NCBI GenBank assembly: GCA_031553315.1
Contig: JAVBLT010000007.1
Location: forward strand, 104,576-168,575
Direction of reading: 5' to 3'
Length of the DNA: 64,000 nt
From: Kiritimatiellia bacterium
GTDB taxonomy: Bacteria; Verrucomicrobiota; Kiritimatiellia; RFP12; DVOR01
In this document: positions 15,613 to 58,439 of the stretch, in pieces
Position numbering within the stretch: position 1 is the stretch's first letter
How the letters are laid out: every line of letters starts with the position of its first letter
Translations under genes and position numbers: made by a program
The notes under the pieces: generated by a model
Database searches by the model: none
What the model was told of the DNA's origin: nothing
The model's input: only the letters and a program-made list of their open reading frames with translations

Positions 15613-15615
15613 GGC

Positions 15616-18126: not shown

Positions 18127-18231
18127 GGGCGGTATGGTAACACAGCGGAGGGGGCGGGGTCAATGGCGGGAACCGCCAACACCCGGCGATAAAAAAAGAG
18201 GCGCTCCTTTCGGGGCGCCTCTTTCGCGGGA

Positions 18232-24999: not shown

Positions 25000-26208
25000 A
25001 TGACCCAAAAACCCGTCAAACGCGTCGCCTTCCTCACCGCCGGCGGCCTCGCCCCCTGCCTCAGCTCGGCCCTGGGCTTCCTCATCGCCGAGTATACCCG
25101 CGCGGCGCCGGAAATCGAGCTCATCGGCTACGTCAACGGCTACAAAGGCCTCCTCGCCGGCGAATACCTCGCGGTGACCCCCGAAGTGCGCCGGCACGCC
25201 CTCTGGCTCACCGAGCACGGCGGAAGCCCCATCGGCAACAGCCGCGTGAAGCTCACCAACGTGAAAGACTGCGTGAAGCGCGGCCTCGTGAAAGAAGGCG
25301 AAGACCCCCAGAAAGTGGCCGCGGATCAGCTCGTCAAAGACGGGGTCGACGTGCTCCACACCATCGGCGGAGACGACACGAACACCGCCGCGGCCGACCT
25401 CGCCGCCTTCCTCGCCGCCAACGGCTACGACCTCACCGTCGTCGGCCTGCCCAAAACCATTGATAACGACGTCTACCCCATCGCCCAGAGCCTCGGCGCC
25501 TGGACCGCCGCCGAAGAAGGCGCCAGATACTTCGCCAACGTCGTCAAAGAAAACACCGCCAACCCCCGCATGCTCATCATCCACGAAGTGATGGGCCGCC
25601 ACTGCGGCTGGCTCACCGCCCAGACCGCCATCGAATACCGCAAGCTCCTCGACCAGACCCATTACCTGCCCGAATTCGGCCTCACCCGCGAGCGCGAAGA
25701 CCTCCACGCCGTCTACATCCCCGAAACCGAGTTCAACGTCAACGCCGAAGCCGCCCGCCTCGTCAAAATCATGAACGAGAACGACAGCGTCAACATCTTC
25801 ATCTCCGAAGGCGCCTGCGTCGACACCATCATCGAAGAAATGGAAGCCCGCGGCGAAGAAGTCCCGCGCGACGCCTTCGGCCACCCCCGCCTCGACAAAG
25901 TCAACGTCGGCGCCTGGTTCGCCCGGCAATTCGCCGACATGCTCCGCGCCGAAAAAGTCCTCATCCAGAAGAGCGGCTACTACAGCCGCGCCGCCCGCCC
26001 CAACCCGCGCGACCTCGAGCTCATCCGCACCTGCGCCGAAAAAGCCGTCGAATGCGCCCTCGCCCGCCAGGGCGGCGTCGTCGGCCACGACGAAGACCGC
26101 GGCGGCCAGCTCCGCGCCTGCGAATTTCCCCGCATCAAAGGCGGCAAGCCCTTCAACCCGGCCAACGCCGAGTTTCAGAGCCTCCTCGCCGCCATCGGCC
26201 AGAAATAA
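25000..26208 (+). CDS. pfp: pyrophosphate-dependent 6-phosphofructokinase
   Basis: RBS aggagag; LTAGGLAPCLSS, HTIGGDDTN, GLPKTIDNDV PFK motifs; 402 aa. Confidence 0.85.
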   Translation: MTQKPVKRVAFLTAGGLAPCLSSALGFLIAEYTRAAPEIELIGYVNGYKGLLAGEYLAVTPEVRRHALWLTEHGGSPIGNSRVKLTNVKDCVKRGLVKEGEDPQKVAADQLVKDGVDVLHTIGGDDTNTAAADLAAFLAANGYDLTVVGLPKTIDNDVYPIAQSLGAWTAAEEGARYFANVVKENTANPRMLIIHEVMGRHCGWLTAQTAIEYRKLLDQTHYLPEFGLTREREDLHAVYIPETEFNVNAEAARLVKIMNENDSVNIFISEGACVDTIIEEMEARGEEVPRDAFGHPRLDKVNVGAWFARQFADMLRAEKVLIQKSGYYSRAARPNPRDLELIRTCAEKAVECALARQGGVVGHDEDRGGQLRACEFPRIKGGKPFNPANAEFQSLLAAIGQK

Positions 26209-37873: not shown

Positions 37874-37984
37874 AAAACATGCTTACAAATAACAAGGTTT
37901 TTCTTGTCACTTTTTTATGAGATGTGTTATTTTGTCTCCAGTAGGAAACTGGTTTAGCGAATAAAATTCAACCGAGGTGTTCAA

Positions 37985-40900
37985 ATGACACGAAACCGAA
38001 CAAAAAACCGGGCCTTGAGCCCGTTCGCATTGATTTTAACAGGGTGCCTTTCGCCTGTCTTCGCCGCCGACGCTCCCCTTGTGCTTGACAACGGCATCCC
38101 CGCCCACTCGAACTACACAGCGATCGATTCCGGCGCCGTCAACCGCGGAGCCGTCTCCGCCGCCGAAAACGTGTGGGTCAACTTCACCGGCGAAGGCGAG
38201 ATCAGCGGCGCCATCACAGCCGCCGACGCGGAGACCCGCTACCATGTGAAGCTGACGGCGGGCACGATGACCGGCAACGACGGCGCCACCTTTGCCGTGA
38301 ACAACGCCTGGCAGGCGCAGATCAGGCAACCCGTCACCGCCGCGTCGCTTTGGATTCACAACGGCCGCGTTCCCCTAAAATCGAAAACCGCCCTGGACAC
38401 TGTCGGCACCGTGTACGTGGCCGGCGGCCAGCTTTGGTTCGACGGCGACGGCGCCGACGCCGCCATCAACGCCATCGTCGTGGGAACCTCCAACTATTCC
38501 GGCGACAGCGCCAACAATTACAACAAAGCCGCCATCCGCATGGATGCCAACGCCTCCGTGACCGGCCTCACCTCCGTGATTTCCCCCGCCAGGTTTACAT
38601 TTTCCAACGGCAAGACCCTGACCCTCGCCTCGCTCGGCGGCAGCGGCGATTTGGAGCTTAAAAACTACACGCAGAGCAAAACGGGCGGGTTTCTCAAAAT
38701 CAACGCCAGTTCCGAATATACCGGCACAATCACCATTCAAAACAACGGCCTGGAATTCGGCGGCGCCGTAACCGGCCTCCCCCGGCTGATCATGGCGCAA
38801 GACCCGGCCATGCCCGAGAAAACCGTCACCCTCAAGCTCAACGCCCCCGCCACGCTGGCCCCCGGCACCGCCTTCAACTCCGGCATCATCGATCTCAGCG
38901 CCGCGCCGCTCTCCGACACCGCCGCCGCGATCACAATCCCCGACGCCACAGTGACCTTCGCGCACGGGCTCACGATCAACCTCGGCACAGGCCGCCCCGC
39001 CAACGCCACGTTTCGCGTGTTCGGCGTCGCCGACGGCGCCGATTACGCCGCCGCGTTCGAGAAGATCAACGTCACCCTCAACGGGCGCAGCGCCTTCATC
39101 AACCCCGCCGGCTACGTGACCGGATATCCCGACATCCGCTCCGCCAACAGCTTCGAGACCCAGGTCGTACACACCGGCCAGGATCTCTGGGTCAACGTTT
39201 CCGTGAACGGCGGCGCAATCAAGGCCGGCATCGACGCCGCCGGGCACAATCTGAAAATCACCAGCGGCACCCTCACGGGAACCCCGCCCGATCCCTCCAC
39301 GTATTCCCCCCAAAACGGGTCGACCAAACTGCTCAACGGCCCCATCTCCGCCGCCTCGCTTTCCATCGAAAGCGGCCGCCTCTCGCCCAACGCCACCGGC
39401 CTCCTCGCCAACGCCGGCACCGTTTACCTCAACGGCGGCCACATCTACCCCGCCGGAGGCGAAACCTTCGCCAACGATTTCGTCTTCAACACAGCGAGCT
39501 ACACCGAAGGCAACTCCTACGGCGGCTCTGTGTACCGCGTGGACTCCGCCACCGCCTTCAACGGCTCCGCCACCATCCGCACCGGCTCCGAGTTTTGCTT
39601 TGGCGGCAGCGGCATGCTGAGCTTCGCCAACCTGCGCGGAGCGGGCAACGTGATCCTTGATCTCTATGGCGGCACAGGTCATATCCTCACCGTCGACAAT
39701 ACCGACGACTACACCGGCACGATCCTGATGAACAACGCCCAGATCTCGCTCAAGCTTGCCGCCGGCCGCGCCGCCGCCCCCAGGTTCACCCTCACCGCCG
39801 GTTCCTTCATCCCTCAGATGCCCGTGACCCTGCGCGCGGGAACAGCCCTCACCTCCGGCACGGTCGATTTCAGCGGCGTGACGCTGAACGCCGCCACCCC
39901 CGCCATGACCATTCCCGCCGGAGCCGCCGTTTCAGTCGGAGCGGGCGTCGCCTTCCAAATGGGTGCGAACTATTCATTCCCCGTGACTCTGAAACTGTTT
40001 GAGGGCCCCGCTCCCGCCGGGTGGAATCCCCAGACCGCCACCGTGCTGATGGGAGCGGTGGCGCCCACGGCCCGCACCGTCAATGCCGACGGCTCCATCA
40101 CCTTCGACATCGAGCTCCAGCCCATCGCCTTCACCACCCCCTCCGCCGACTGGGAGGCCAAAACCTTCCCCGCGGGAACGCTTGAATCCATTGTCCCCGC
40201 CGGCGCATCCGTGGGCTTCGGCACGCAGCCGGCGTTTGTGCAGACGCTCGGCGGCAAAGCGTCGACCGTCGTCAACGTCACCGGCGGCGGCGATTCCGCG
40301 GCCAACATCTACGGGATGTACGGCCGCGCCACACCCCCCGCCGCCTTTGAAAGAGATGTGTGGCTCGCCGTGACCGGCGGCACCTTCCTGCGCGTGGTCG
40401 GCGGCGCTGAAAGCGAGTGGACGAGCAACGCCTCGGGCTCCATCACGGGCGATATCCTTGTGGAAATGCGCGGAACCTCCAAAGCCGGCGCCCTTATCGG
40501 CGGTTTTCAGGAAAGCGCCTTCGCCACCCGCTTCATCACCGGCAATATCGGCGTGGTGCTGGGCGAGGAGGCCCTCGTTTCCGGTTCCGTCATCGGGTTC
40601 GCGAACAGCGCCCACAGCCAGACCTCCACGCTGAACGGCAATACCGCCGTGCTCGTTAAAAACGTGCAGAGCGACACCAATTACGCCTCCGCCACCGCCC
40701 CCGCCAACACCGCCGCCGGCTGGATCGTCGGCGGAGGCATGTGGAGCACCGCCAATGCGGGCTCGGGCGCCGTCGTCAACGGCAACACGGCTGTGGCGGT
40801 CGATATTCCCGAAGGAAAAACCGGCATATTCCGCAAAGCGCTCGTGGGCGGCAGCCACTCGGTCAACCTCGGCGCCGCGCCCTTCACGGTCAGCGGCTCC

Positions 40901-42175
40901 ACCGGCGTCAGCATCACCGCGCCCGAAACCGTCCGCTTCCTGGATCCGGTCGTCGGCGGCGGTTACACCACCGGCAATGCACCGGCCACGGCCGGCTCTT
41001 CCAGCGTCACGCTCAACGGCGGAACCTTCCTCGCCGAAGTGGTCGCGGGCGGCAGCGGCGCCCAAGCCTCGGTCGCGGGCGACGCCGTGCTCAACGTCAA
41101 CGGCGGCGTGCTGGCCAATACCGTGCTCCGCGGCTCCTCCGCAGCCTCGACCGTCGGCGGCCTCAAACGCCTGCGCGTGAGCGGCGAGCGCGCCATTGAC
41201 CTCACCGGAACCACCGTGATCGATTTCAACGCCGTCGAAGCGACCGGCGGCGCCACGCTCACCCTCGGCCAGGCCACGCAGGTCGATGCCGCCACCGCCG
41301 CAAACGGCGGCAAGCTCGTCATCGCCGGCAAAACCTCCGCCCAAGCCCTTGACTCGGCGGCATTCCGCCACATCCGCCTCACGGTCGCCGACTGGCCCCG
41401 CTCCAACCCCAACGGCAACCTCGGCAACCATTCCAACACCGGTGTGGCCATCGGCGAATTCCGCCTGACCAGCGGCGGCGAACCCGTCTCCTGGGGCACA
41501 GGCGCCTCCATCGCCGGCATTCCCGCGGGAAGTGGAAACGAAGGCGTCGCCTCGATGATCGACGGCAACCCCAACACCAAGTTTTTCACCGCCCCGGGAA
41601 CCGAGCCCGCCTATCAGTTCACCGTAACGCGCGGAGCCGACGCCCCCGCATTCGACGGCTATCAGATTCTCGGATCCGATCAGGCCGGCCGCAGCCCGCG
41701 GGTCTGGACGCTTTCCGCCAGCGTCGACGGCGCCAGCTGGGTTGTTCTCGACCAGCAGGCGCTCACCTACGCTTCACTCGCCGGGTGGAACTACGGCGTG
41801 GTCAAATCCTTCACCTGCGCCCGCACCGGCGTGGCCTCCGCCATCGGCGCCGTCACCGTGGCCGAAGGCGGCACACTCACCGGCTCCGGGCGGCTGATCG
41901 GCAACCTCGCCTTCGAAGCCGGCTCCACCCTGCTCAAAACCTCGACCGACCCCGCCGAAGCGCCCTGGGTGGAAGGAACCGTCTCAGGCGGCGCGACCGT
42001 CGTCGGCCCCGATCTTGAGTTCACGTCCGCCACCCGGCAATATCTGCTGACCGGCCCCGGAGCCGTCGCCGCCGATGCCTCCGCATTCCAGGCGGCCGAA
42101 GGCCTCGTTGTCCGCAACGACGATACCGGCCTTTACCTGACCCGGCAATCCGGCATCATGATCATGCTCTTCTGA
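37985..42175 (+). CDS. large secreted surface protein: repeated beta-strand/autotransporter-associated-like repeats + C-terminal F5/8 type C (discoidin/CBM32-like) domain
   Basis: AT-rich promoter region 37874-37984, RBS gaggtg; signal peptide; two about 330-aa internal repeats; MIDGNPNTKFF…RVWTLSASVDGASW discoidin signature near the C-terminus; 1396 aa. Confidence 0.65.
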   Translation: MTRNRTKNRALSPFALILTGCLSPVFAADAPLVLDNGIPAHSNYTAIDSGAVNRGAVSAAENVWVNFTGEGEISGAITAADAETRYHVKLTAGTMTGNDGATFAVNNAWQAQIRQPVTAASLWIHNGRVPLKSKTALDTVGTVYVAGGQLWFDGDGADAAINAIVVGTSNYSGDSANNYNKAAIRMDANASVTGLTSVISPARFTFSNGKTLTLASLGGSGDLELKNYTQSKTGGFLKINASSEYTGTITIQNNGLEFGGAVTGLPRLIMAQDPAMPEKTVTLKLNAPATLAPGTAFNSGIIDLSAAPLSDTAAAITIPDATVTFAHGLTINLGTGRPANATFRVFGVADGADYAAAFEKINVTLNGRSAFINPAGYVTGYPDIRSANSFETQVVHTGQDLWVNVSVNGGAIKAGIDAAGHNLKITSGTLTGTPPDPSTYSPQNGSTKLLNGPISAASLSIESGRLSPNATGLLANAGTVYLNGGHIYPAGGETFANDFVFNTASYTEGNSYGGSVYRVDSATAFNGSATIRTGSEFCFGGSGMLSFANLRGAGNVILDLYGGTGHILTVDNTDDYTGTILMNNAQISLKLAAGRAAAPRFTLTAGSFIPQMPVTLRAGTALTSGTVDFSGVTLNAATPAMTIPAGAAVSVGAGVAFQMGANYSFPVTLKLFEGPAPAGWNPQTATVLMGAVAPTARTVNADGSITFDIELQPIAFTTPSADWEAKTFPAGTLESIVPAGASVGFGTQPAFVQTLGGKASTVVNVTGGGDSAANIYGMYGRATPPAAFERDVWLAVTGGTFLRVVGGAESEWTSNASGSITGDILVEMRGTSKAGALIGGFQESAFATRFITGNIGVVLGEEALVSGSVIGFANSAHSQTSTLNGNTAVLVKNVQSDTNYASATAPANTAAGWIVGGGMWSTANAGSGAVVNGNTAVAVDIPEGKTGIFRKALVGGSHSVNLGAAPFTVSGSTGVSITAPETVRFLDPVVGGGYTTGNAPATAGSSSVTLNGGTFLAEVVAGGSGAQASVAGDAVLNVNGGVLANTVLRGSSAASTVGGLKRLRVSGERAIDLTGTTVIDFNAVEATGGATLTLGQATQVDAATAANGGKLVIAGKTSAQALDSAAFRHIRLTVADWPRSNPNGNLGNHSNTGVAIGEFRLTSGGEPVSWGTGASIAGIPAGSGNEGVASMIDGNPNTKFFTAPGTEPAYQFTVTRGADAPAFDGYQILGSDQAGRSPRVWTLSASVDGASWVVLDQQALTYASLAGWNYGVVKSFTCARTGVASAIGAVTVAEGGTLTGSGRLIGNLAFEAGSTLLKTSTDPAEAPWVEGTVSGGATVVGPDLEFTSATRQYLLTGPGAVAADASAFQAAEGLVVRNDDTGLYLTRQSGIMIMLF

Positions 42176-42188
42176 TCGCCTTGATCAA

Positions 42189-42227
42189 ACAAACGCCGCC
42201 CCTTGCCGGGCGGCGTTTGTTTTTGTT
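42189..42227 (+). terminator. strong rho-independent terminator after the 1396-aa surface protein gene
   Basis: 13-bp perfect stem ACAAACGCCGCCC/GGGCGGCGTTTGT, 6-nt loop, followed by TTTTGTT. Confidence 0.75.
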
Positions 42228-42280
42228 GCGTTGACGAATCCCCGTTTTTCAGCTACTTTATCCCCGAAAGGAATTCTGGA

Positions 42281-44404
42281 ATGAAACACCGTTGGATCGT
42301 TGCATGGGGAGTGCTGTGCGCGGCTTTCGCGCAGGCCGGTACAATCAAAGTGGCGTGCATCGGCGACAGCATCACCTGGGGAACCGGTCTGGAAGACCGC
42401 GCCACCGAAAGCTATCCCGCCCGCCTTCAGGCCCTGCTCGGCAATGCCTATACCGTGCGCAACTTCGGCGCCCCCGGCCGCGGCGCCTACCGCGACAATG
42501 CCTACAGCGCCACCCCCGAACATGCCGCCGCCCTCGCCTGGCAGCCCGACATCGTGATCTCCAACCTCGGCATCAACGACGCCGAAGCCTACGACGCCTC
42601 CCCCCGCTTCGCCGCCGATTACTGCACCCTCCTGCAAACCTACGCCGGCCTTCCCTCCAAACCCAAGCTCTATCTCTGGACCAAGCTCGCCCCCCTCACC
42701 GAAAAACACCGCCTCTACCGCAGCCCCGCCCCCTTCCTCATGCAGCGCGATCTGGAAATCGTGGCCGACCGCATCGGCGCCGCCCGAATCGACATGCAAT
42801 ACCCCTTCGAGACCATCGCGCTCCAGACCATGCCCGACGGCATCCACCCCAACGCCAAAGGCATGGCCCGCATCGCCGAAATCACAGCCAAGGCGATGAC
42901 GCCCCCCGCCGCCCTCACCCTGCCCTACTATTTCGGCCACGCCATGGTCCTCCCCGCCGAGACCGCCTTCACCATCCGCGGAACCGCCAAACCCGGCGTC
43001 GCCGTCACCTGCGGCGCCCTTTCCGCAGTGGCCGACCGGCGCGGCGAGTGGAGCATGATCCACCCCGCCACCCCGCCCTCCGCCGAAGGCATCACCCTCG
43101 CCTTCAAAGCCGGAGACGAAACCCGCGAATTCTTCAACGTGCTCTTCGGCGACCTCTGGGTCTGCGCCGGCCAATCCAACATGGATTTCGCCGTGACCTC
43201 CAGCGCCAACGCCCGCGAAATCCGCGCCGCCGCGACCAACGCCAACCTCCGCGTGCTCCGCTGGGGCAGCCTGCTCCCCGTTTGGGGCGAAGGCTGGAAC
43301 GAAACCCAGCTTGAGCGCAGCAAAACCCCGGGCCTTTTCGGCGGCGCCTGGCGCGCGGTCGATTCCCCCGGCGCCGCCAGCGACCTTTCCGCGATCGGCG
43401 TGATGTTCGGCCAGGGCCTGCTCGCCGCCCGCCCCGGCATACCCGTCGGCATCATCCAGATTGCCGTGGGCGGCGCGCCGGTCGAAGCGTTTCTGCCCAA
43501 GTGGCGCATGGCCGCCCATGCGCCGCTGGTTCCGCTCGTCACCGCCCGCGGCCCCTGGTATCATACCGTCGGCTTCGTCCTCGAAGCGCACGCCGCCCAG
43601 GCCCGCAAAGCGTTCAAATACGCCCTCCCGCGCTACGACCTTTCCGAAATGATGCACCCCCTTGGCCCCGAAACGATTTGGCGCTGCGCCTTCGAGCCGC
43701 TCTTCTTCGCGCGGGGAAGCGGCGAGGCGTTCCCCGTGAAGGGCGTGGTCTGGTACCAGGGCGAATCCAACGCCGTGGCCCCCAAAAACACCCGCTACCC
43801 CGCCGACCCGGCCTACATGCGCGCGGGGATCGATTCTCTGATCGAGGCGCTGCGAAGCGAAAGCCGCAACGCGGATCTCCCCGTGATCATGGTGCAGCTG
43901 CCCAAGTTCAACCAGCCCTGGATGCTCTTCCGCGAGGCGCAAAGCCAGGCCGCGAAAGCCTTTCCCCGCACCGGCCTCGTGGTTTCCACCGACACGGGCG
44001 ATATGAAAGACATTCACCCGCGCGACAAGAAACCCATCGCCGACCGCTGCCTCGCCGAAGCCCTCCGCCTGGCCTACGGCAATGCCGGCGCCCCCGCCTT
44101 CACCTTCGCCGAAAGCGCCGCGCGCGAAGGAGATTCCGTGATCGTGACCTTCAGCGGCCCCGCGCTGGCTCAAACCGTTTCCCCCGCAGGCGTGGAACTC
44201 TCGGCCGACGGCGAAACCTTCCTCCCCGCGATGAGCGTGACCCGGCTCGATGATTCGCGGATGCGCGCGCAGGGAATCTCAGAGCCCGCCGCCATCCGTT
44301 ACAACTGGGCCCCCGATCCCCCCGGCCGGCTCCTCAACGCCGCCGGGCTGCCCATCGCCCCCTTTCGCTGGAATCAGGATCAGAACCGCGAGGGCGGCCA
44401 TTAA
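42281..44404 (+). CDS. two-domain carbohydrate esterase: N-terminal SGNH/GDSL hydrolase + C-terminal sialate-O-acetylesterase-like (SASA) domain
   Basis: Signal peptide; GDSL block VACIGDSITWGTG and DGIHPN; SASA hallmarks CAGQSNM and VWYQGESN; 707 aa; 3' end overlaps convergent LysE gene by about 125 nt. Confidence 0.7.
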   Translation: MKHRWIVAWGVLCAAFAQAGTIKVACIGDSITWGTGLEDRATESYPARLQALLGNAYTVRNFGAPGRGAYRDNAYSATPEHAAALAWQPDIVISNLGINDAEAYDASPRFAADYCTLLQTYAGLPSKPKLYLWTKLAPLTEKHRLYRSPAPFLMQRDLEIVADRIGAARIDMQYPFETIALQTMPDGIHPNAKGMARIAEITAKAMTPPAALTLPYYFGHAMVLPAETAFTIRGTAKPGVAVTCGALSAVADRRGEWSMIHPATPPSAEGITLAFKAGDETREFFNVLFGDLWVCAGQSNMDFAVTSSANAREIRAAATNANLRVLRWGSLLPVWGEGWNETQLERSKTPGLFGGAWRAVDSPGAASDLSAIGVMFGQGLLAARPGIPVGIIQIAVGGAPVEAFLPKWRMAAHAPLVPLVTARGPWYHTVGFVLEAHAAQARKAFKYALPRYDLSEMMHPLGPETIWRCAFEPLFFARGSGEAFPVKGVVWYQGESNAVAPKNTRYPADPAYMRAGIDSLIEALRSESRNADLPVIMVQLPKFNQPWMLFREAQSQAAKAFPRTGLVVSTDTGDMKDIHPRDKKPIADRCLAEALRLAYGNAGAPAFTFAESAAREGDSVIVTFSGPALAQTVSPAGVELSADGETFLPAMSVTRLDDSRMRAQGISEPAAIRYNWAPDPPGRLLNAAGLPIAPFRWNQDQNREGGH

Positions 44405-44980
44405 AAGCGCCGCCGCCGCGAGCGCCGCCGAGTAGATGCGCGGGCGGCGCCGAAGCAGGTTGCCCAGGCTCCCCCCCGCGCAGGCCACGGCGGAAAACAC
44501 AATCAGCGTGGCCAGAATGAAGAGCGCGCCCAGAACAACGATCTGCGGGAGGAGCGGCGCCTCGGCCCGCCACACAAACTGCGGCAGAAACGCCAGAAAG
44601 AAAATCGAGACCTTCGGGTTGCAGAGGTTCATCACAATCCCCCGGCGGTAGAGCTGCCAGCCCGCAAGCTCCGGCGCCTGCGCAAACCGCGCCTCCCTCC
44701 GCGCGGCGGAAAACATCCCCCACGCCATGTAGAGCAGATAGGCCGCCCCCGCCCAGCGCAGCAGGTTGAAGGCCGCGGGCGAATGCTGGAAAAAGGCCGC
44801 CACGCCCAGCGCCACCGCCGCCGTGTGCGCGAAAAGGCCGCTGCACAGCCCCAGCGTCACGCACAGCCCCTTCTTCGGGCCGTAGGCGAGCGATTGCGCC
44901 AGCACGAAGAGATTATCCGGCCCCGGCGCAAGCCCCAGCAGGAGCGCCGTGCCGAAAAATCCCAGAAGGTGGGCGGTCAT
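44279..44980 (-). CDS. LysE/RhtB-family amino-acid exporter
   Basis: Six TM helices, family motif LGLAPGPDN near N-terminus; 233 aa (about 25-aa C-terminal extension relative to typical family members). Confidence 0.8.
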   Translation of the reverse strand: MTAHLLGFFGTALLLGLAPGPDNLFVLAQSLAYGPKKGLCVTLGLCSGLFAHTAAVALGVAAFFQHSPAAFNLLRWAGAAYLLYMAWGMFSAARREARFAQAPELAGWQLYRRGIVMNLCNPKVSIFFLAFLPQFVWRAEAPLLPQIVVLGALFILATLIVFSAVACAGGSLGNLLRRRPRIYSAALAAAALLMAALAVLILIPAKGGDGQPGGVEEPAGGIGGPVVTDGGGL

Positions 44981-49023: not shown

Positions 49024-49584
49024 TCAGAACCCCTGGCGGCGGCGTAGCGCCACAAGCGCGAAGCCGAGCATTCCAAGCAGGGCGGAGGCGGGCTCGGGAA
49101 CAACGGTGTTTTCCGTTTTCATCCATCCGGAGGAAAACCAGTTGCCCGCGGAGCCTTCCCACATGGCGCCGTTGCCTTGCTGCGATGACGTGATGTAGGA
49201 ATTTGAGGCGATGTATTCGGCGTCGTCCGCCGTCAGGAAGACAACGCTCGTTCTGAGGGTATCTAAAACAATTTTGATTTCGGGATCCGGCTCCACTTTC
49301 GTCGCCACAATCATCATGGGAGACCACATTCCTTCGCCGCGAGTGGCGACCGTGATGGCGCTATCCAGAGCCTGGCGGGTTATTTTCCCGTCGGAATCGC
49401 CGAAGGCGGAGTCGAACGTGACGAGCTTGATGCTCTGGATGTCGTTGATGTTGACGCCGCTGGGGAGGGCCGAGGCATAGAGCATGACCATGACCGAGTC
49501 GACACTGAGTACGACAGCCTGCGCAGAGGCGCAAAGAAGAAACGCAACATAAAATGTCAACTGTTTCATCATACGTTTTATCAT
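49024..49584 (-). CDS. secreted PEP-CTERM sorting-domain protein (lower GC, about 50%)
   Basis: ATG at 49584 with RBS gaaagg; signal peptide MKQLTFYVAFLLCASAQA; C-terminal VVPEPASALLGMLGFALVALRRRQGF. Confidence 0.7.
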   Translation of the reverse strand: MIKRMMKQLTFYVAFLLCASAQAVVLSVDSVMVMLYASALPSGVNINDIQSIKLVTFDSAFGDSDGKITRQALDSAITVATRGEGMWSPMMIVATKVEPDPEIKIVLDTLRTSVVFLTADDAEYIASNSYITSSQQGNGAMWEGSAGNWFSSGWMKTENTVVPEPASALLGMLGFALVALRRRQGF

Positions 49585-49860
49585 CCTTTCTTCGTTCGTT
49601 TTTTCAGAAATGAACGCAACCTCATTTCCGCGAACGCGTGTTTTCATGCCGATTTTAAGCCGTAAAGGTAAACACATAACAAACAATCCGGCTTTTTTCT
49701 GTGGCTTGAAAACGAGGCGTATTATAGAAAAAAGGTGTCTGATTTGTCAACCGCATTTCGGTGATTTTTTCTTTTTACTGGTTTTCTCCCGCCGGTTATG
49801 CCATACTGCCTCACAGTGGCGATTGAGATTAGGTTGAAAATTTCACTGCACGAGGGTTTC

Positions 49861-51858
49861 ATGATGCGGAAACACAACAGTTTATTTTTCAAGGGGGCGT
49901 TGCTTGGCGCGCTCTTCCTCATGCCTGCCTTCGCGCGCGCTCAGGATAAACCCACAGAGATTACCTTCCGAAATGAGCAGCCGGCGAAGCTCGACTCGAA
50001 GGGCCGGAAAATCGAAACGATCGAGACTGACCGTAAAATCACGCTCGGTGAAGACGGCCTGCTCTCCTCCAAAGAGTATCGCGAGAAGCTCGCCGAGGAT
50101 GAACGCCTGCGCAAGCTGGCCAAGGAGTGCGGCGAGTGGTTCGAGCGGGTGCAGCTTTTAGACGCGAAAAAGCCCGGCGGCATGCTGGCCTACATCGAGG
50201 CGATGCGCATCTTCAAGGTGAGCGACGCGGTGAGGCGCGAAGAGGGCCGGGCGGCCTCGCAGCTCAAGGCCTCGCTCGACGAAATGCTGCGCCGGCGCGG
50301 CGGCGAGATCATGGTCGGCCCCGGGCACGGCGTCTCCATCGACGACCCGATGGAGCTGCTCCTGCTGCGCTATCAGAGCAACCTGGCGCAAAGCACGCCC
50401 GTGAAGGAGCTCAAGCCCGCGAAATCGGCCGACTTGTGGCCGGGCCCCGTGGCGAAAGAGGCGCAGCGCGTCACCAAAAAAGTTTACCTCAACTCGGCCG
50501 TGGGCGGTTGGCTCAGCACAGGGCTCTATGCGCCTCCCGGCGAAGTGATCCGCATCAGGGCGCTGACGCTGGGCGGGGGCGACAACCTGCGCGTGCAGAT
50601 CGGCTGCCATTCCGACAAGCTCGACCCGCAGATCATGGCGCTCAAGGAGGGCGGCGGCGTGGATAAAGAGGCGCCCATCAACCTCATGGCCGTGAAGATG
50701 GGCTGGCAGGAGATCACCGACAACCGCTCCCTCTGGCGCTGGCCCGATTGCGTGCGCTCGTTTAAAATCACCAAACGCAAGGCCGAGGTGGGCTTCGCCC
50801 TGGGCGGCATGCTTTATTTTCAGTATAGCGCGGGCAAGAGCGGCAAGATCATGGAGGTGGAGGTTTCGGGGTGCGTGGAAGCGCCGCGCTTCCGCCTGGG
50901 AATCGACACCAACGACGATTGGAACACCCGCCTCAGCAAGCTCCCCGCCCCCTGGGGCGAGCTGGAAACCAAAAACGTGATTCTCACCTTCCCCTCCAAT
51001 GCCGCCCGCAACGTGACCAACATGCTGGAGGTCGCCCAGTGGTGGGGCAAAGCCACCGCCATGCAATACCGCCTCTCCGGGCGCAAGCTCGCGACCGACT
51101 TCGGCAAAGACCACCTGCCCCGCCCCGAACGCCTGGTCGACGACACCCAGATCTCCATCGGCGCCGGCCACTCCGGCTACCCCATCATGCACATGGGCTG
51201 GAGCGGCGGCATGCTGAACCTGCGTTCGCTCAAAGCCGCCGGCAACTGGGGCTCCATGCACGAAATCGGGCACAACATGGGCCAAGGCGCCAACGGCGTC
51301 TACACCATTCCGGGCAACATCGAAGTCATCTGCAACTTCTACGGCACCTTCGTCATGAACAAGCTCAACGGCACCTCCCTGCGCCGCATCCACGCCGAAT
51401 CCTGGAAAAACGTCGCCGCAAAAATCAACGGCTCCGCCTACGGCTGGGCCCAGGCGCAAGTCTTCGAGCGCCTCGTCTTCTACATGACCCTGGCCGATTA
51501 TTTCGGCTGGGATCCCTTCCTCGAAGCCGTGAACGACACCGACAAAATCCCCAAAGAGTGCGACCAGCCCGTCGACCCCCTCCTCGTGCGCCTCTCCAAA
51601 TCGACCGGGCGCGACCTCACCCCTTATTTCGACATGTGGAAGCTGCGCTACTCCAAAGGCGCCGCCCGCTTCACCTCCAAATTCCCCCCATGGCCCGTTG
51701 AAGAAGAAAAAGCCAAACTCTTCGAAGACGACCCCTACGCCCACCTCGACGGCGAATCCTCCGAAGTCCGCGCCCCCTCCGACCCGTGCGACGTGAAGAC
51801 CAAACGCCAGCTCCGCAACTCCGGCAGCATGAACGCCCACACCGATCTCAATCACTAA
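49861..51858 (+). CDS. secreted zinc metallopeptidase, M60-like (enhancin-like) gluzincin
   Basis: Signal peptide; N-terminal coiled-coil; HEIGHN zinc motif with downstream Glu (…GNIE) about 20 aa later; 665 aa; RBS cgaggg. Confidence 0.55.
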   Translation: MMRKHNSLFFKGALLGALFLMPAFARAQDKPTEITFRNEQPAKLDSKGRKIETIETDRKITLGEDGLLSSKEYREKLAEDERLRKLAKECGEWFERVQLLDAKKPGGMLAYIEAMRIFKVSDAVRREEGRAASQLKASLDEMLRRRGGEIMVGPGHGVSIDDPMELLLLRYQSNLAQSTPVKELKPAKSADLWPGPVAKEAQRVTKKVYLNSAVGGWLSTGLYAPPGEVIRIRALTLGGGDNLRVQIGCHSDKLDPQIMALKEGGGVDKEAPINLMAVKMGWQEITDNRSLWRWPDCVRSFKITKRKAEVGFALGGMLYFQYSAGKSGKIMEVEVSGCVEAPRFRLGIDTNDDWNTRLSKLPAPWGELETKNVILTFPSNAARNVTNMLEVAQWWGKATAMQYRLSGRKLATDFGKDHLPRPERLVDDTQISIGAGHSGYPIMHMGWSGGMLNLRSLKAAGNWGSMHEIGHNMGQGANGVYTIPGNIEVICNFYGTFVMNKLNGTSLRRIHAESWKNVAAKINGSAYGWAQAQVFERLVFYMTLADYFGWDPFLEAVNDTDKIPKECDQPVDPLLVRLSKSTGRDLTPYFDMWKLRYSKGAARFTSKFPPWPVEEEKAKLFEDDPYAHLDGESSEVRAPSDPCDVKTKRQLRNSGSMNAHTDLNH

Positions 51859-51867
51859 GGAAACATC

Positions 51868-54800
51868 ATGAACCGCCACACCCTCCTCGCCGCCCTCACC
51901 CTCGCCGGCGCCGCCCTCACTGCGGCCGAGCCCGGAAGAGCAATCAGAATGATTCCCCAAAGCGGCATCTCCAAAACCTTTAAAATCGTCACCGATACCG
52001 ACATCGAGCTGAGCGTGCAATTCTTCCGGGCCGACGTGTTCCGCATCCTCGCCGCGCCCGGCGGCCACTATGCCGACCCCAAAAACAACCCCGAAAAAGC
52101 CCAGATCCTCGCCGACGCAACCGAAGACGCCTCCCGCGTGACCTTCGCCGACACCCCCGAGCACGCCACCTTCACCACCACCGCCCTCACCCTCACCCTC
52201 GACAAAGCCACCTGCCGCTTCACCCTCCTGCGCCCCGACGGCACCCCCATCTGGCAAGAGCTCGCCCCCCTCAACCTCACCTCCAACCTCACCACCCAGA
52301 CCCTCTCCTCAGCCCCCGCCGAATACTACTACGGCGGCGGCCAGCAAAACGGCCACTTCTCCCACAAAGGCACCCGAATCGACATCCGCGCCGACGGCAA
52401 ATGGGATGAAGGCGGCCACCCCAACCCCGCCCCCTTCTACATGAGCAACGCCGGCTACGGCACCCTCCGCCACACCTTCTCCCCCGGCGCCTACGACTTC
52501 ACCGACAATTCCCGCATCACCCTCCAACACAACGAAAACCGCTTCGACGCCCTCTACTTCGTGGCCCCCACCTTCAACCGCATCATCGACCTCTACACCC
52601 AGTTTACCGGCCGCCCCAATTTCCTCCCCATCTGGGGGCTCGAGCTCGGCGACGCCGACGCGTATATGACCCGCGACAAAGAAACCAAAGCCCCCAAACA
52701 GCGCGACGACGGCACCTACGTGGAAATCACCCCCGACGCCATCCCCGTGGCCCAATCCTACCGTGAACACGACATGCCCGGCGGCTGGATCCTCGTGAAC
52801 GACGGCTACGGCTGCGGCCACCTCCAGCTCCCCTACACCGTCAAAGCCCTCGCCTCCCTCGGCTTCCACACCGGCCTCTGGACCGAAGGCGCCCTCGACC
52901 TCACCGCCTGGGAAGTCGGCACCGCCGGCACCCGCGTCCAAAAGCTCGACGTGGCCTGGACCGGCCCCGCCTACCAGCACGCCCTCGAATGCAACCGCAT
53001 CGCCCACACCTCCCTCGAAACCAACTCCGACAGCCGGGGCTTCGTCTGGACCGTCCAGGGCTGGGCCGGCACCCAGCGCTACGGCATCTGCTGGACCGGC
53101 GACCAATACGGATCCTGGGACCTCATCCGCTACCACATCCCCACCCTCACCGGATCCGGCCTCTCCGGCCAGGCCTACGCCACAACCGACGTCGACGGCA
53201 TCTTCGGCGGCTCCCCCGAAACCTACACCCGCGACCTCCAGTGGAAATGCTTCACTCCCGCCCTCTACGTGATGAACGGCTGGAGCAACCTCAACAAATC
53301 ACCCTGGGCCTACCCCGAACCCTACCGCAGCATCAACCGCGATTACCTCAAGCTCAAGATGCGCCTCACCCCCCTCCTCTACACCTACTGCCGCCAGGCC
53401 TACGACACCGGCGCACCCATCGTCCGCCCCCTCCTCTGGAACTACCCCCAAGACCCCAAAACCTGGGACAACACCACCCAATACCAATTCATGCTCGGCA
53501 GCGAGCTCCTCATCGCCCCCGTCTACACCAGCATGAAAGTCAACCGAGGCTGGCGCAAAAACATCTACCTCCCCCAAGGCGCCTGGGTCGATTATCACGA
53601 CGGCCGCCTTACCACCGGCCCCGCCACCCTCGAAGCCTACCCCGTCACCCTCGAAAAGCTCCCCGTCTTCGTCCGCGCCGGCGCCATCATCCCCATGTAC
53701 CCCGAAATGCTCTACAACAACCAGCGCCCCAAAGACCCCCTCACCTTCGACGTCTACCCCCACGGCCGCACCGCCTTCACCCTGTATGAAGACGACGGCC
53801 TCACCCGCGCCTACAAAACCGGCGCCTACACCACCCAGACCATCACCTGCGCCGCCCCTGAAGACGGCCTCCCCGGCGACATCCTCATCACCCTCGCCCC
53901 CCCCTCCGGCGACTACCAGGGCAAGCCCCACACCCGCGCCTACACCTTCCAGATCCACACCCGCGCCGCCCCCCGCCACATCATGCTCGGCGACCAGGAG
54001 CTCCTGCGCCTGACCGCCACCAACAACCTCCAGACCGCCTACGACAACGCCCTCCAAACCTGGTACCACGACCCCGCCGACCGCCACGGCATCCTCCACA
54101 TCAAGCTCGCCCCCCGCCCCACCGGCCAGCCCCTCACCCTTCACATCGCCCACAACCCCGCCGCCGAAATCGCACCCACACCGCCCTACCCCGTCCCTGA
54201 AATCACCCACGAGCTCGACAAAACCGAATTCACCCTCACCTGCGATTCCGAGCAAGGCGGCTCCGGCATCAACAACGCCTTCGACGGTTCCCCCGAAACC
54301 ATCTGGCACTCCAACTACGGCAAAAAAGACCCCGAACACACCCACCCCTACACCATCACCATCGACCTCGGCCGCCTCGCCGCCGTCAACGGCCTCGGCT
54401 ACCTTCCCCGCCAGAACTTCGGCAACGGCTCCATCAAAGGCTACGAAATCTACCTCAGCCGCCACCCCGGCACATTCGGCGCCCCCGTTGCCAAAGGCGA
54501 ATTTCAAAGAGAATACCTCGACCCCGCCGCCGAAAAGAAAGAACCCAAATACCAGACCGTCGGCTTTACCCCCACCTGGGCCCGCCACATGCAAATCAAA
54601 GTGCTCAGCTCCCTCGGAGGCGACCGCTTCGGCTCCGCAGCCGAGTTCGACATCCTCCAAGACCTCGACCAGCCCCCCCTCCCCGATGAAAACCTGTATC
54701 TGGCCGACCTCAAACCCCTCCGCGCCACCGGCCCCTACGCCAACGACAAAGGCCTCAAAGCACCCGCCATCCGCGTCGACGACACCCCCTGGGCCCGCGG

Positions 54801-55110
54801 CACCACCGTCCGGGCCGGCACCGAGCTCACCTACCCCCTCGACGGCACCTACGACCGCCTCATGGGCCATGTCGGCATGGAAGACGCGCAGGGCGACGGC
54901 GGCCTCGTCACCTTCCGCGTCTTCGCCGACGACCAGATGATCTTCGAACGCCTCGGCATGTACGGCGCCCAAGTCAAACAACTTCTCGACGTAAACATCC
55001 CCCCCGCCGCCAAAGAACTCCGCCTCACCCTCACCCCCGAGCCCGGCGGCTCCCCCGCCGACACCGGCGTGTGGGTCGATACCCGCCTCGTGCGCAAAGG
55101 CAGTGAATAG
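51868..55110 (+). CDS. glycoside hydrolase family 31 with C-terminal F5/8 type C (CBM32-like) and NPCBM domains
   Basis: 9-nt gap after peptidase gene; GH31 catalytic blocks GWILVNDGYG and YGICWTGDQYGSWD; CBM32 block NNAFDGSPETIWHSNY…GYEIYLS; NPCBM block LYLADLKPL…VTFRVFADD; 1080 aa. Confidence 0.8.
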   Translation: MNRHTLLAALTLAGAALTAAEPGRAIRMIPQSGISKTFKIVTDTDIELSVQFFRADVFRILAAPGGHYADPKNNPEKAQILADATEDASRVTFADTPEHATFTTTALTLTLDKATCRFTLLRPDGTPIWQELAPLNLTSNLTTQTLSSAPAEYYYGGGQQNGHFSHKGTRIDIRADGKWDEGGHPNPAPFYMSNAGYGTLRHTFSPGAYDFTDNSRITLQHNENRFDALYFVAPTFNRIIDLYTQFTGRPNFLPIWGLELGDADAYMTRDKETKAPKQRDDGTYVEITPDAIPVAQSYREHDMPGGWILVNDGYGCGHLQLPYTVKALASLGFHTGLWTEGALDLTAWEVGTAGTRVQKLDVAWTGPAYQHALECNRIAHTSLETNSDSRGFVWTVQGWAGTQRYGICWTGDQYGSWDLIRYHIPTLTGSGLSGQAYATTDVDGIFGGSPETYTRDLQWKCFTPALYVMNGWSNLNKSPWAYPEPYRSINRDYLKLKMRLTPLLYTYCRQAYDTGAPIVRPLLWNYPQDPKTWDNTTQYQFMLGSELLIAPVYTSMKVNRGWRKNIYLPQGAWVDYHDGRLTTGPATLEAYPVTLEKLPVFVRAGAIIPMYPEMLYNNQRPKDPLTFDVYPHGRTAFTLYEDDGLTRAYKTGAYTTQTITCAAPEDGLPGDILITLAPPSGDYQGKPHTRAYTFQIHTRAAPRHIMLGDQELLRLTATNNLQTAYDNALQTWYHDPADRHGILHIKLAPRPTGQPLTLHIAHNPAAEIAPTPPYPVPEITHELDKTEFTLTCDSEQGGSGINNAFDGSPETIWHSNYGKKDPEHTHPYTITIDLGRLAAVNGLGYLPRQNFGNGSIKGYEIYLSRHPGTFGAPVAKGEFQREYLDPAAEKKEPKYQTVGFTPTWARHMQIKVLSSLGGDRFGSAAEFDILQDLDQPPLPDENLYLADLKPLRATGPYANDKGLKAPAIRVDDTPWARGTTVRAGTELTYPLDGTYDRLMGHVGMEDAQGDGGLVTFRVFADDQMIFERLGMYGAQVKQLLDVNIPPAAKELRLTLTPEPGGSPADTGVWVDTRLVRKGSE

Positions 55111-55615: not shown

Positions 55616-56524
55616 CTACGCCTTGCCGTTTTTGATGACCGGCGCGGGATCCTGGTTGTAGACCTTGCTGCCGGGAGGCACCGAGTGAATGAGCCAGACG
55701 TTGCCCCCGATCACCGAATCGCGGCCGATGGTGGTATCGCCGCCCAGAATCGTGGCGCCGGCGTAGATGACCACATGGTCTTCCACATTCGGGTGGCGCT
55801 TGATGTCTTTCACGAGGCGGCCCTTCTCGTCTTTCGCGAAGCTGAGCGCGCCGAGGGTGACGCCCTGGTAGAGCTTCACCCGGCGGCCGATCGAGCAGGT
55901 CTCGCCGATCACCACCCCGGTGCCGTGGTCGATGAAAAAGCCCGGACCGATGGTCGCGCCGGGGTGGATGTCGATCCCCGTGCGGGAATGGGCGTGTTCG
56001 CTCATCACGCGGGGGAGGAGGTGCACGCCGTGGCGGTAGAGCTCGTGGGCGATGCGGTGCACGGCCACCGCGTAGAGCCCGGGGTACGACATCACGATTT
56101 CCATCGTGGAGTGCGCCGCGGGGTCGCCTTCATACGCGGCCTCGATGTCTTCCCCCAGCATCCGCTTGATTTCGGGAAAGGCCGCGAGCAGGCAGGCGAC
56201 CACGTTTTCCGCGCGGTCTGTGCAGGCCGCGCAGGTGGCGCAGGTGCCGGTCGAGCAGGTGTAAGCGTCGACCCGCGCGATCTGATCTGTCAGGCGCTCG
56301 GCGATGGAGGTGATTTCGCGCTCGAAATAGTCCGCGTCGGGGGTGACGGGGCCATGGCCGAGGCAGCCGGGAAAAAGCACCCCCAGCATGGCCTCAAGCA
56401 CCTCCACCACGGCTTCCCGCCCGGGCAGGTTCACCTCGCGGGCGGTGTTGACGCCGGAACAGTTGCGGCAGGGAGAAAATGCGGCTGAAAGCTGACGGAT
56501 CTGTTCGGCGATGCGCTCATTCAT
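55616..56524 (-). CDS. cysE: serine O-acetyltransferase
   Basis: SATase N-terminal helical domain + hexapeptide-repeat region ([28 protein letters not shown]); 302 aa. Confidence 0.85.
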
Positions 56525-58439
56525 GCGGTGAACCGTTTCCTTTTTTTTCCTGTGTGAGGCGAATCAACACCCGGTCGGCGCCGAGGTTGCGGTGGCAGAA
56601 GAAGATCAGAAAGCGCCCGATGCGGCTCGCGGAATGCGTCGCCACGATTTTGGCCTTGATCCCGGCCGTTTTGCAGGCAATGAGAAAATCATCGAGCGTG
56701 CAGAGGTGAATGTTGGGCGTGTCGTACCACTCATACGGGAGCGCCTTCGCCTTGGGCATGCGCCCCTTGAAAAGCAGATACAGCCGAACCGGCAGATAAC
56801 CGAAATTGGGAAACGAGACCACCGCCTCCCTGCCCACGCGCAACAGCTGCTCCAGCACGCGGTCGGGGCGTTTCACCACCTGAATGGTGTAGCTGAGCAC
56901 GGCGGTATCGAACGAATCATCGGGGATGATGCTCAGCTCGTCTTCCATATCCTCCATGATCACATCGAGCCCCGCGTGCAGGCTCAGGAGCACCTGGTCG
57001 AGGCGGATCTCAACGCCGATGCACGAAGCCTGCTTCATGATCGCCAGGCGTTTGAGCAGAGCGCCGTCGCCGCAGCCCAAATCGAGCACGCGGGCGCCCT
57101 GAGGCACAAGGTTGAGGAAATCGCGGTAAAAGGGATGGGAATCGCGGGAAACGGGGATCTCGTCTTCCATCTTCAGCGCCGTGAGAAAGGCGCGGATGAC
57201 CTGCTTGAGCTCCGTGATGTGGGTGAGAAACGCGTCGTGCCCCGCCGGCGCGTCGAGGTGGCAATAAGAAACATGCCTGCGCTGGCGCAGCAGCGCGCTC
57301 ACCATCGTCTGCGCCTGATCGGGCGTGAACAGCCAATCGCCGCTGAGCGACACAATCAGAATGCGCGCCTTGACCTTCGCGAACGCATCTTCCAGCGAGC
57401 CGTAGCGCTCGCCGAGGTCAAATGAATCCATCGCCCGCGTAATCTGCAAATAGGAATTGGCGTCGAAGCGCTGCACGAACTTCTCGCCTTGATATTCGAG
57501 ATAACTCTCGATTTGGAAATAGGTTTTGAAGTCTCGCCTGGCCCTGTCGTGATAGTCGCTTTCATCGTTCATCCAATCGGGGCGCTTCACGCGGCCAAAC
57601 TTATCCTCCATCATCTCCTGCGAAAGATAGGTGATGTGCGCCAGCTTGCGCGCGCTCGCCAACCCCTGGTTCGGTTTCAGCGGCGAGGAATAATAATCGC
57701 CCTGCTGCCAGTTGGGATCCTGCACAATCGCATGGCGGCCCACAATGTCAAACGCCAGCGCCTGCGTATTGAGGCTCGCCGCCGACGCCACCACCACGCA
57801 GTGATCCATATCGTCGGGATACTGCACCGCCCACTCCAGCACCTGCATTCCCCCGAAGCTGCCGCCCACCACCGCCGCCAGGCGCCTGAAACCCAGCTGC
57901 CGAACCAGCATCCGGTGCACCGTCACAATATCGCCCACCGTCGTTTCCGGAAAGGCCGAGCCGTAGTGCCGCCCCGTGGCCGGATTGATCGAAGCCGGCC
58001 CCGTGGTGCCCTTGCACCCGCCCAGGATATTCGCGCAAATCACATAATAGCGATCCGTGTCGATCCCCTTGCCCGGGCCGATCATCCCCTCCCACCAGCC
58101 CGAAGGCTTTTCGGAAGCCACGTTTTCCCCCGGCCTGAACCCCGCCACATGCGCATCTCCCGTGAGCGCATGGCAGACAAAGACCACATTGTCCTGCTTC
58201 TCATTCAGCGCTCCAAACGCCTCGTAGCGGACAATCACCTCCCGCAGCGCCCCGCCCTTTTCCAGCGGGAACCCCCCGGCCGGAAGCTCCAGCCGCAAAT
58301 CATGCGGTTCCACCACCCCCACAGGGTGGCGCGAAGGCTGCCGTTTATGCTCAAAATCAGTAGTCATCAGGCAAATATTCCCGCGGTTGGCTTCAATGCA
58401 ATGGAAATTCATCAGCTCGACGGTGTAGTTTACGGACAA
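56517..58439 (-). CDS. metX: fused homoserine O-acetyltransferase (MetX) + MetW methyltransferase-like domain
   Basis: MetX alpha/beta-hydrolase nucleophile elbow VVGGSFGG and N-terminal [11 protein letters not shown]; C-terminal SAM-MT-like block [12 protein letters not shown]; 640 aa; true start probably one of the internal Met (aa 10 or 25). Confidence 0.8.

Follow-up and report, generated by a model that had tools for sequence, protein, structure and literature searches.

A probable NanS-type sialate O-acetylesterase encoded next to a passenger-like beta-helix protein in a Kiritimatiellia contig

We analyzed a 64,000-nucleotide stretch of contig JAVBLT010000007.1 from a Kiritimatiellia bacterium (the window) and focused on two adjacent genes on its forward strand, open reading frame (ORF) A at 37985..42175 and ORF B at 42281..44404. 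The best explanation of these genes, which we consider probable, is that they encode two separately transcribed exported proteins, with ORF A a glycan-binding beta-helix protein resembling autotransporter passengers and ORF B a sialate O-acetylesterase of the NanS type. ORF B would de-O-acetylate the sialic acids of host-type glycans, and its two modules would act at distinct sites, O7 and O9, as has been reported for the NanS enzyme of Tannerella forsythia. This de-O-acetylation would in turn make the sialic acids cleavable by sialidases. An earlier sequence-only reading of the stretch was borne out overall, after correction of the start of ORF B, of the position and detectability of a discoidin domain in ORF A, and of the order of a downstream M60 and GH31 gene pair. 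The window is ~65% G+C and long shadow ORFs are therefore common in it, but ORF A and ORF B are nevertheless real genes.

The two-module esterase encoded by ORF B

The translation, the Pfam matches, and an identical protein at NCBI (P0001) identify the ORF B product as a 707-residue exported two-module O-acetylesterase, with the make-up of the NanS type. The listed ORF extends from 42203 to 44404 and opens, in the same frame, on a TTG codon at 42203. This start was rejected because the codon sits inside the hairpin of a transcription terminator, and the true start is the ATG at 42281 (MKHRWIV...), which gives the 707 residues of the NCBI protein. The ribosome-binding site GAAAGGAATT (42266..42275, forward strand, as are all features below unless stated) lies 5 nt upstream of this ATG, and both the start and the site, at 10 of 10 positions, are kept in the orthologous locus L001. 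A signal peptide, MKHRWIVAWGVLCAAFAQA followed by G (42281..42337), could be read from the sequence by its hydrophobic core and AQA/G motif, and the orthologue carries a counterpart, MRLWQSVVFGVFFAAFAQA followed by E.

The first module (residues 26 to 196, 42356..42868) is a classical SGNH/GDSL hydrolase by Pfam and homologue alignment, with Ser30 (GDS), Gly63, Asn99 (GIND), and Asp186-x-x-His189. It scored above the gathering threshold for PF13472 (Lipase_GDSL_2; E 1.9e-21, 77.8 bits versus 32.9) and for PF00657 (E 2.9e-10, 41.1 bits versus 23.6), and blocks I (GDS), II (G), III (GxND), and V (DxxH) were all conserved in 26 of 26 aligned homologues. Among curated models, the best match was to the SGNH part of the NCBIfam acetylxylan esterase AxeA1 (NF042968, profile positions 270-458), at 103.8 bits versus a 700-bit cutoff. 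The designation of ORF B as an AxeA1 equivalog was rejected because this match covers only part of the model and scores well under the cutoff.

The second half of the protein is CE20-like and has three parts. An N-terminal beta-sandwich (residues 209 to 290, 42905..43150) aligns with residues 20-100 of the structures 9h4u and 7kmm. It is followed by module 2, a SASA/CE20-like SGNH domain recognized by Pfam and Protein Data Bank matches (residues 291 to 600, 43151..44080), with Gln298-Ser299 (GQSNM), Gly397-Gly398, Tyr492-Gln-Gly-Glu-Ser-Asn497, and Asp577-x-His579. A C-terminal beta-sandwich (residues ~601 to 697, 44081..44371) matches the last ~100 residues of 9h4u, 7kmm, and 9ega, with the alignment running to the conserved ...PFR; the boundaries of both sandwiches are presumed ones. 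Module 2 matched SASA (PF03629) at E 8.3e-19 and 68.5 bits, versus a gathering threshold of 24.8. The GQSNM (residues 297 to 301) and WYQGESN (residues 491 to 497) motifs, which the sequence-only reading had pointed out together with the pairing of SGNH and SASA domains, were invariant across 30 homologues (G297-Q-S-N300 and Y492-Q-G-E495 in 30/30). Every catalytic block of both modules was retained in the alignment of these 30 homologues, and D577, at the CE20 "anchor" position, was D or N in 28 of them. ORF B is thus predicted to be a Sec-exported serine esterase with two complete active sites.

When residues 209 to 697 were compared with solved structures by phmmer, they matched end to end with 9h4u (Fl8CE20_II, E 7.1e-43), 7kmm (XacXaeA, E 7.7e-39), and 9ega (E 2e-32). 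Weaker matches (~1e-11) were found to the "sialic acid acetylesterase" entries 8f9o-r, presumably the sialic acid esterases of eukaryotes that PMC12313940 describes. At E<=0.01 the search did not recover E. coli NanS or the CE6 structures (3pt5, 1zmb, and 2apj), whereas it did recover CE20 members. Where the CE20 structures have ~190 residues, ORF B has ~54 (residues 407 to 460), and it would therefore be without the inserted ancillary domain. In CE20 enzymes an SGNH domain, with a DxH motif in block V, stands between two beta-sandwiches; in the bacterial members active on xylan or xyloglucan, an ancillary (X448) beta-sandwich inserted in the SGNH domain builds a water-mediated triad, and the eukaryotic members are without this insert (PMC12313940). 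ORF B has this layout and resembles the founding member XacXaeA, and the X448 insert is absent. With the CE20 enzymes (XacXaeA, Fl8CE20_II, PpCE20_II, and the eukaryotic esterases 8f9o-r) it shares the three-part arrangement, the GQSNM block I, the DxH block V, and the Asp/Asn anchor. In having no X448 it departs from the bacterial enzymes for xylan and xyloglucan and is like the sialic acid esterases of eukaryotes, and it adds an N-terminal SGNH module. The SASA family is defined by a block I GQSN, with a Gln beside the nucleophile Ser, and by a block III (H)QGE (PMC9487903). Both of these features, along with Pfam membership, are common to ORF B and the E. coli NanS/SASA (PF03629)/CE6 group, although E. 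coli NanS is a single-domain enzyme, unlike the two-module ORF B. The sequence-only reading had proposed deacetylation of sialic acids or acetylated glycans and had regarded assignment to unrelated lipase families as the outcome that would speak against it. The modules relate instead to carbohydrate de-O-acetylases (CE20 esterases and sialate O-acetylesterases at E 7e-43 to 1e-11 and, as a partial match, the SGNH part of AxeA1), and the CE20 and sialate esterase relatives support the proposal, as do the gene contexts of homologues described next.

Homologues of ORF B are numerous (>1063 found), and nearly all of those listed are ~690-730 residues long with the same Pfam pair. They are named sialate O-acetylesterase or GDSL-type esterase in their sources, which include Prevotella/Hoylesella, Capnocytophaga, Lentisphaeraceae, and Akkermansiaceae; among the Bacteroidota homologues with this Pfam pair, many carry the first name, and homologues occur in nan clusters. 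We examined the genomic contexts of seven homologues at 33-41% identity. In five of the seven (L003-L006 and L008; 33-39% identity), the two-module esterase lies in a sialic acid utilization cluster. A BNR sialidase and a DHDPS-family (NanA-type) lyase stand beside the esterase in L003-L006, accompanied in L003-L005 by a NanM-SSF mutarotase/transporter fusion and an N-acetylglucosamine (GlcNAc) 2-epimerase and in L006 by a ROK kinase instead. A GlcNAc 2-epimerase adjoins the esterase in L008, and the remaining two contexts, on short contigs, held only regulators of matching types. In one further protein (P0102), the esterase homologue is fused to the mutarotase NanM.

ORF B combines two catalytically complete modules in one exported polypeptide, the signal peptide of which was read from the sequence, and this is the arrangement of the NanS type. 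The T. forsythia enzyme is reportedly a sialate 7,9-O-acetylesterase (Phansopa 2015; Albers 2021) and is said to be made up of SGNH/GDSL and SASA parts. The passages on this enzyme in PMC8319020 (its reference 177) and PMC13043746, which go back to Albers 2021, describe two catalytic modules whose specificities are for the O7 and O9 positions of sialic acid. Several features set ORF B apart from the NanS group: its identity to the homologues from Bacteroidota and to those linked to nan genes is no more than ~31-39%, its source has a high GC content (~65%), and no nan cluster surrounds it within 64 kb. Because of the homologue contexts, the NanM fusion in P0102, and the NanS architecture, the most likely function of ORF B would be sialate de-O-acetylation. 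Its specificity for sialic acid is taken from the homologues because the window itself is without sialidase or nan genes.

At its 3' end, the esterase gene overlaps a convergent LysE-family ORF (44279-44980, reverse strand) by 126 nt (44279-44404), and no terminator lies between the two. Pfam's LysE match does not reach the overlapping LysE tail (GGDGQPGGVEEPAGGIGG...), which resembles low-complexity read-through.

The beta-helix protein encoded by ORF A

ORF A (37985..42175) encodes a 1396-residue exported beta-helix protein, as the sequence-only reading had stated for a secreted repeat protein of this length, and an identical protein with the same ends is annotated in the NCBI record of the 232,474-bp contig. 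A consensus scan placed a sigma-70-like promoter, TTGTCA-18-TATTTT with a TG extension, at 37904..37933. Its function is presumed, and L001 keeps its elements (CTTGnC...TGTGnTATTTT) within flanking sequence that has diverged. The signal peptide, MTRNRTKNRALSPFALILTGCLSPVFA followed by ADA (37985..38065), was read from a basic N-region, a hydrophobic core, and a VFA/A cleavage motif, and in alignments with orthologues the conservation of ORF A starts precisely at A28. An LTGC sequence (Cys21) fits the lipobox [LVI][ASTVI][GAS]C and is followed by the VFA/A signal peptidase I site; the relative P0151 is without a lipobox. In L001 (350-440), the ORF A orthologue has its signal peptide stretch in a different frame from the remaining gene, through either an assembly error or a real frameshift, and the gene caller therefore began at an internal Met (residue 95 in ORF A numbering).

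Neither Pfam nor NCBIfam returned a family match to ORF A at E<=0.01, and P0150 is its single clear orthologue (55% identity). A scan of species-representative genomes with ORF A and this orthologue as queries found a sole match, to the N-terminal module, in Akkermansia glycaniphila (33%), and a scan of JGI metagenomes found no match. ORF A did not retrieve itself in the homologue search of the protein collection because of a clustering artifact rather than for a biological reason. The representative of its 90%-identity cluster (P0433/P0434, locus L012) is an unrelated, AT-rich 50-residue fragment from a TARA scaffold (28.8% GC) with no blastn similarity to the window.

The N-terminal half of the protein consists of two beta-helix modules, at residues 28 to 400 (38066..39184) and ~395 to 730 (39167..40174). 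Alignment and local phmmer showed module 2 to be an internal duplicate of module 1 (29% identity over ~330 residues), and module 2 also appears as a second high-scoring segment pair against P0150. The following region (residues 731 to 1076, 40175..41212) is homologous in sequence to the passengers of Akkermansia autotransporters (1831-1855 residues). It aligned with residues 380-773 of P0170, an 1831-residue Akkermansia muciniphila protein with a PF03797 barrel, at 28% identity over 403 columns (E 6e-30).

Between beta-helix rungs, at residues ~1127 to 1280 (41363..41824), a discoidin/F5/8 type C/CBM32-like beta-sandwich is inserted. A phmmer search with residues 1118 to 1285 against 1.84 billion representatives found 456 relatives, 68 of them at E<=1e-10 and often with several tandem copies, and PF00754 was above its threshold in 9 of 10 sampled relatives. 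When a profile built from 22 such segments was run against solved structures, it hit the CBM32 modules of 7nsn (E 8e-26), 4a42 (7.8e-5), and 5zu6 (1.4e-3). Residues 1127 to 1280 are predicted to have the galactose-binding-domain-like beta-sandwich fold. Remote homology thus supports a discoidin/CBM32-like domain here. The sequence-only reading had the protein end in an F5/8 type C domain; the domain stands, although it falls below the Pfam threshold, and the terminal position does not, as ~115 residues follow it. We rejected a common origin with the F5/8 domain of the GH31 enzyme in the window, as no similarity between them was found. Compared with the CBM32/F5/8 type C modules of mucin- and glycan-active enzymes (CBM32-3 of the Clostridium perfringens GH31, 4lks; NanJ CBM32, 2v72; ZmpB, 7jnb), the module of ORF A is too divergent for PF00754, and its subfamily is typically embedded between the rungs of giant beta-helix proteins. 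This divergent subtype has the pattern R-Y/H-[VI]-R-L ... G-x-A-I-x-E-F ... D-G-x-x-x-T-K ... G-R-[ND]-P-x-x-W (proteins P0270-P0418). It occurs mostly within very large beta-helix proteins of 1000-4900 residues, in up to six copies and in N-terminal, internal, or near-C-terminal positions, and is a recurrent cassette of giant surface proteins.

ORF A closes with a beta-helix cap like the autochaperone regions of autotransporters (residues 1283 to 1389, 41831..42151) and a short hydrophobic tail, GIMIMLF (42152..42172), that is conserved in an alignment of four C-termini. ORF A, P0150, P0273 (2105 residues), and P0279 (1276 residues) share the pattern D-x-x-G-[LI]-[FY]-L-x4-G-x5-[FY] at the extreme C-terminus, and the tail of ORF A has a predicted local distance difference test score of ~67, indicating that it is unpacked in the predicted structure. 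The pattern was not found in other ORFs of the window, and a word-indexed protein search with the last 115 residues of ORF A found nothing. Matches to PEP-CTERM and other curated sorting-signal models of Pfam and NCBIfam were absent even at E<=10, and a PEP-CTERM or other known sorting tag was rejected; a true PEP-CTERM protein in the window was detected by Pfam. No PF03797 beta-barrel translocator was found by Pfam, and the protein ends at residue 1396, right after the cap. ORF A therefore shares the right-handed beta-helix passenger and the autochaperone-like cap with type Va autotransporters (those of Akkermansia, Pet, IcsA, Ssp, and pertactin) but, having no barrel and ending ~115 residues past the CBM32-like domain in a 7-residue hydrophobic tail, was rejected as one of them. 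It was also rejected as a truncated pseudogene, since P0150, P0273, and P0279 end alike; the form without a barrel is conserved.

Taken as a whole, ORF A would be a right-handed beta-helix like the passengers of type Va autotransporters, with a duplicated N-terminal module, an Akkermansia-like stretch, and an autochaperone-like cap, and without a membrane barrel. Its most likely role is that of an adhesin-like protein that binds glycans and is either exposed on the surface or secreted. A more far-reaching idea, which we rate as improbable, is that ORF A may represent a family of giant, barrel-less, passenger-like proteins, probably of the Planctomycetes-Verrucomicrobia-Chlamydiae (PVC) group. 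In such a family, the cap and the aromatic-terminated hydrophobic tail (D-x-x-G-L-[FY]-L-x4-G-x5-[FY]-COOH) would be an undescribed signal for outer membrane targeting or attachment, and the CBM32-like module would tether the cell to mucin-type glycans beside a conserved partner esterase.

Gene organization and competing readings

The strong terminator that the sequence-only reading had placed between the two genes is an intrinsic hairpin with a 15-bp stem and a 6-nt loop, followed by a T-rich tract (42187..42222). Its folding dG is -29.2 kcal/mol (z -5.4), a value that none of 200 shuffled sequences reached. L001 retains the hairpin by compensatory changes on both arms (GCCGCCC/GGGCGGC to GCCACCC/GGGTGGC). 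A simple consensus terminator scan had missed the hairpin because its stem extends into the T run. Between the hairpin and ORF B we read a promoter-like element, TTGACG-17 nt-TACTTT (42231..42259), with a presumed function; both hexamers are identical in L001, and the spacer has diverged. Given the terminator and the independent promoter between them, ORF A and ORF B would be separate transcription units, and an operon of the two was rejected on the same grounds. The gene order purN, ORF A, terminator, and esterase is conserved in L001. This synteny may reflect relatedness alone, given that the unrelated purN is syntenic too.

The sequence-only reading had also tied the esterase to a GH31/M60 pair 6 kb downstream. 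The pair is there, although in the order M60 then GH31, and it begins 5.4 kb downstream of ORF B. Pfam identified an M60-like peptidase with an M60-like_N domain (49798..51858) and, 9 bp after it, a 1080-residue GH31 with F5/8 type C and NPCBM modules (51868..55110). The closest solved relative of the GH31 is the Enterococcus faecalis GH31 alpha-N-acetylgalactosaminidase (E 5e-113; next 2e-52), and that of the peptidase is an AcfD/SslE-like lipoprotein (E 6e-15). By these relatives, the two look like a pair that would degrade the core of mucin O-glycans. The proximity of the GH31 to alpha-N-acetylgalactosaminidase indicates mucin-type O-glycans and therefore supports a reading in terms of host-glycan foraging. 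The proposal of a host- or complex-glycan foraging lifestyle is strengthened by this likeness together with the M60-like peptidase.

Several observations weigh against a NanS-type esterase next to a glycan-binding protein as the explanation of the locus. Sialidase, NanA, NanM-SSF, epimerase, and ROK queries all remained without a match in a tblastn search of the 64-kb window. The neighbors of ORF B are housekeeping genes (hisD, recJ, rnc, purN, LysE, Maf, and Lpd), and the linkage to nan genes found for the homologues in L003-L006 and L008 is thus missing for ORF B in the window. Among solved structures, module 2 is most similar to acetylesterases acting on xylan and xyloglucan, and module 1 finds its best curated match in an acetylxylan esterase. 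The likeness of ORF B to T. forsythia NanS, as one exported polypeptide of ~700 residues with two esterase modules, was drawn from the description of NanS and not from a sequence alignment. The signal peptides of both ORFs were judged by eye from the sequence. For the discoidin segment of ORF A, PF00754 gave 16.2 bits on the excised segment versus a gathering threshold of 28.2, and the full protein gave no match. The synteny of the two genes was seen in one relative (L001), possibly just a close one, and the terminator and ORF B's own promoter argue against co-expression of the two.

Some of these points could be accommodated if ORF B deacetylated polysaccharides of plants or microbes (acetylated xylan, xyloglucan, pectin, or the like) instead of sialic acids, which we consider unlikely. 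This alternative would explain why module 2 is closest, among solved proteins, to Fl8CE20_II (xylan) and XacXaeA (xyloglucan), why module 1 has its best NCBIfam hit in the SGNH part of AxeA1, and why nan genes are missing from the window, and acetylxylan esterases are indeed among the SASA/CE6 members (PMC9487903). However, the plant-polysaccharide CE20 enzymes are defined by the ancillary insert that shapes their active site, which ORF B is without (~54 versus ~190 residues), and the AxeA1 match is partial (103.8 versus 700 bits). The homologue contexts point to sialic acid clusters (5/7, with the other two matching in regulator type), and the nearby carbohydrate-active enzymes in the window are of the mucin type. 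We continue to favor sialate O-acetylesterase activity for ORF B.

It is less likely still that ORF A and ORF B cooperate; in such a partnership, the CBM32-like module would anchor either the cell or the enzyme to sialylated or galactosylated mucin, and sialic acids would be unmasked by the esterase. The conserved gene order is what suggests such a pair, but a strong terminator and an independent promoter stand between the genes, the order may be explained by close relatedness given that purN is syntenic too, and an ORF A-like neighbor of the esterase was found in none of the seven other homologue contexts. A functional link between the two genes, as suggested by gene order, is accordingly doubtful. 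Finally, a beta-helix fold could also belong to an enzyme (a polysaccharide lyase, glycosidase, or depolymerase), but for ORF A, which we take to be a binding protein, this is improbable: Pfam and NCBIfam found no catalytic family, its only relatives at the sequence level are autotransporter passengers and similar giant repeat proteins, and structural resemblance among beta-helices is generic.

Other features of the window and significance

Directly upstream of the M60 gene and divergent from it, Pfam found a small exported PEP-CTERM protein (PF07589, ...VPEPASALLGMLGFALVALRRRQGF; 49024..49686, reverse strand), which implies an exosortase system in the genome. Together with the nearest named relatives (Akkermansia, Akkermansiaceae, Lentisphaeraceae, and Sulfuriroseicoccus), this protein hints at an origin in the PVC group. 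On the reverse strand at 13657-22665, a 1477-residue exported protein with a DUF5123 match (18232-22665) is encoded upstream of two ABC sugar-transport genes, one of which (15616-18126, reverse strand) seems to be a fusion of solute-binding and permease domains; the region may be a second glycan-uptake locus. At 56517-58439 (reverse strand), one 640-residue ORF joins an alpha/beta-hydrolase domain (MetX-like homoserine acetyltransferase) with MetW, and a serine acetyltransferase-like gene (55616-56524, reverse strand) adjoins it. ARAGORN called a 95-nt tRNA-Gln (anticodon TTG) at 26077-26171 (reverse strand) that overlaps the start of an ABC-transporter ORF. This call is probably a false positive, and Rfam at the gathering score found no tRNA or other family anywhere in the window.

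In summary, the two genes are an ordinary glycan-foraging toolkit of known kinds rather than a new system, and a specialist would find nothing surprising in them. ORF A is a further example of a passenger-like protein without a barrel, in which only the conserved C-terminal tail hints at a mechanistically unexplored element. A recent proposal holds the ancillary domain to be required for the water-mediated triad, and ORF B is relevant to it as a CE20-like enzyme that naturally lacks this domain. ORF B extends the NanS-type two-module family to a high-GC, probably PVC-group organism, where it is uncoupled from a nan cluster but has an M60-like peptidase and a GH31 of the alpha-N-acetylgalactosaminidase type close by, and its occurrence in such a context is useful for annotating foragers of mucin and host glycans.

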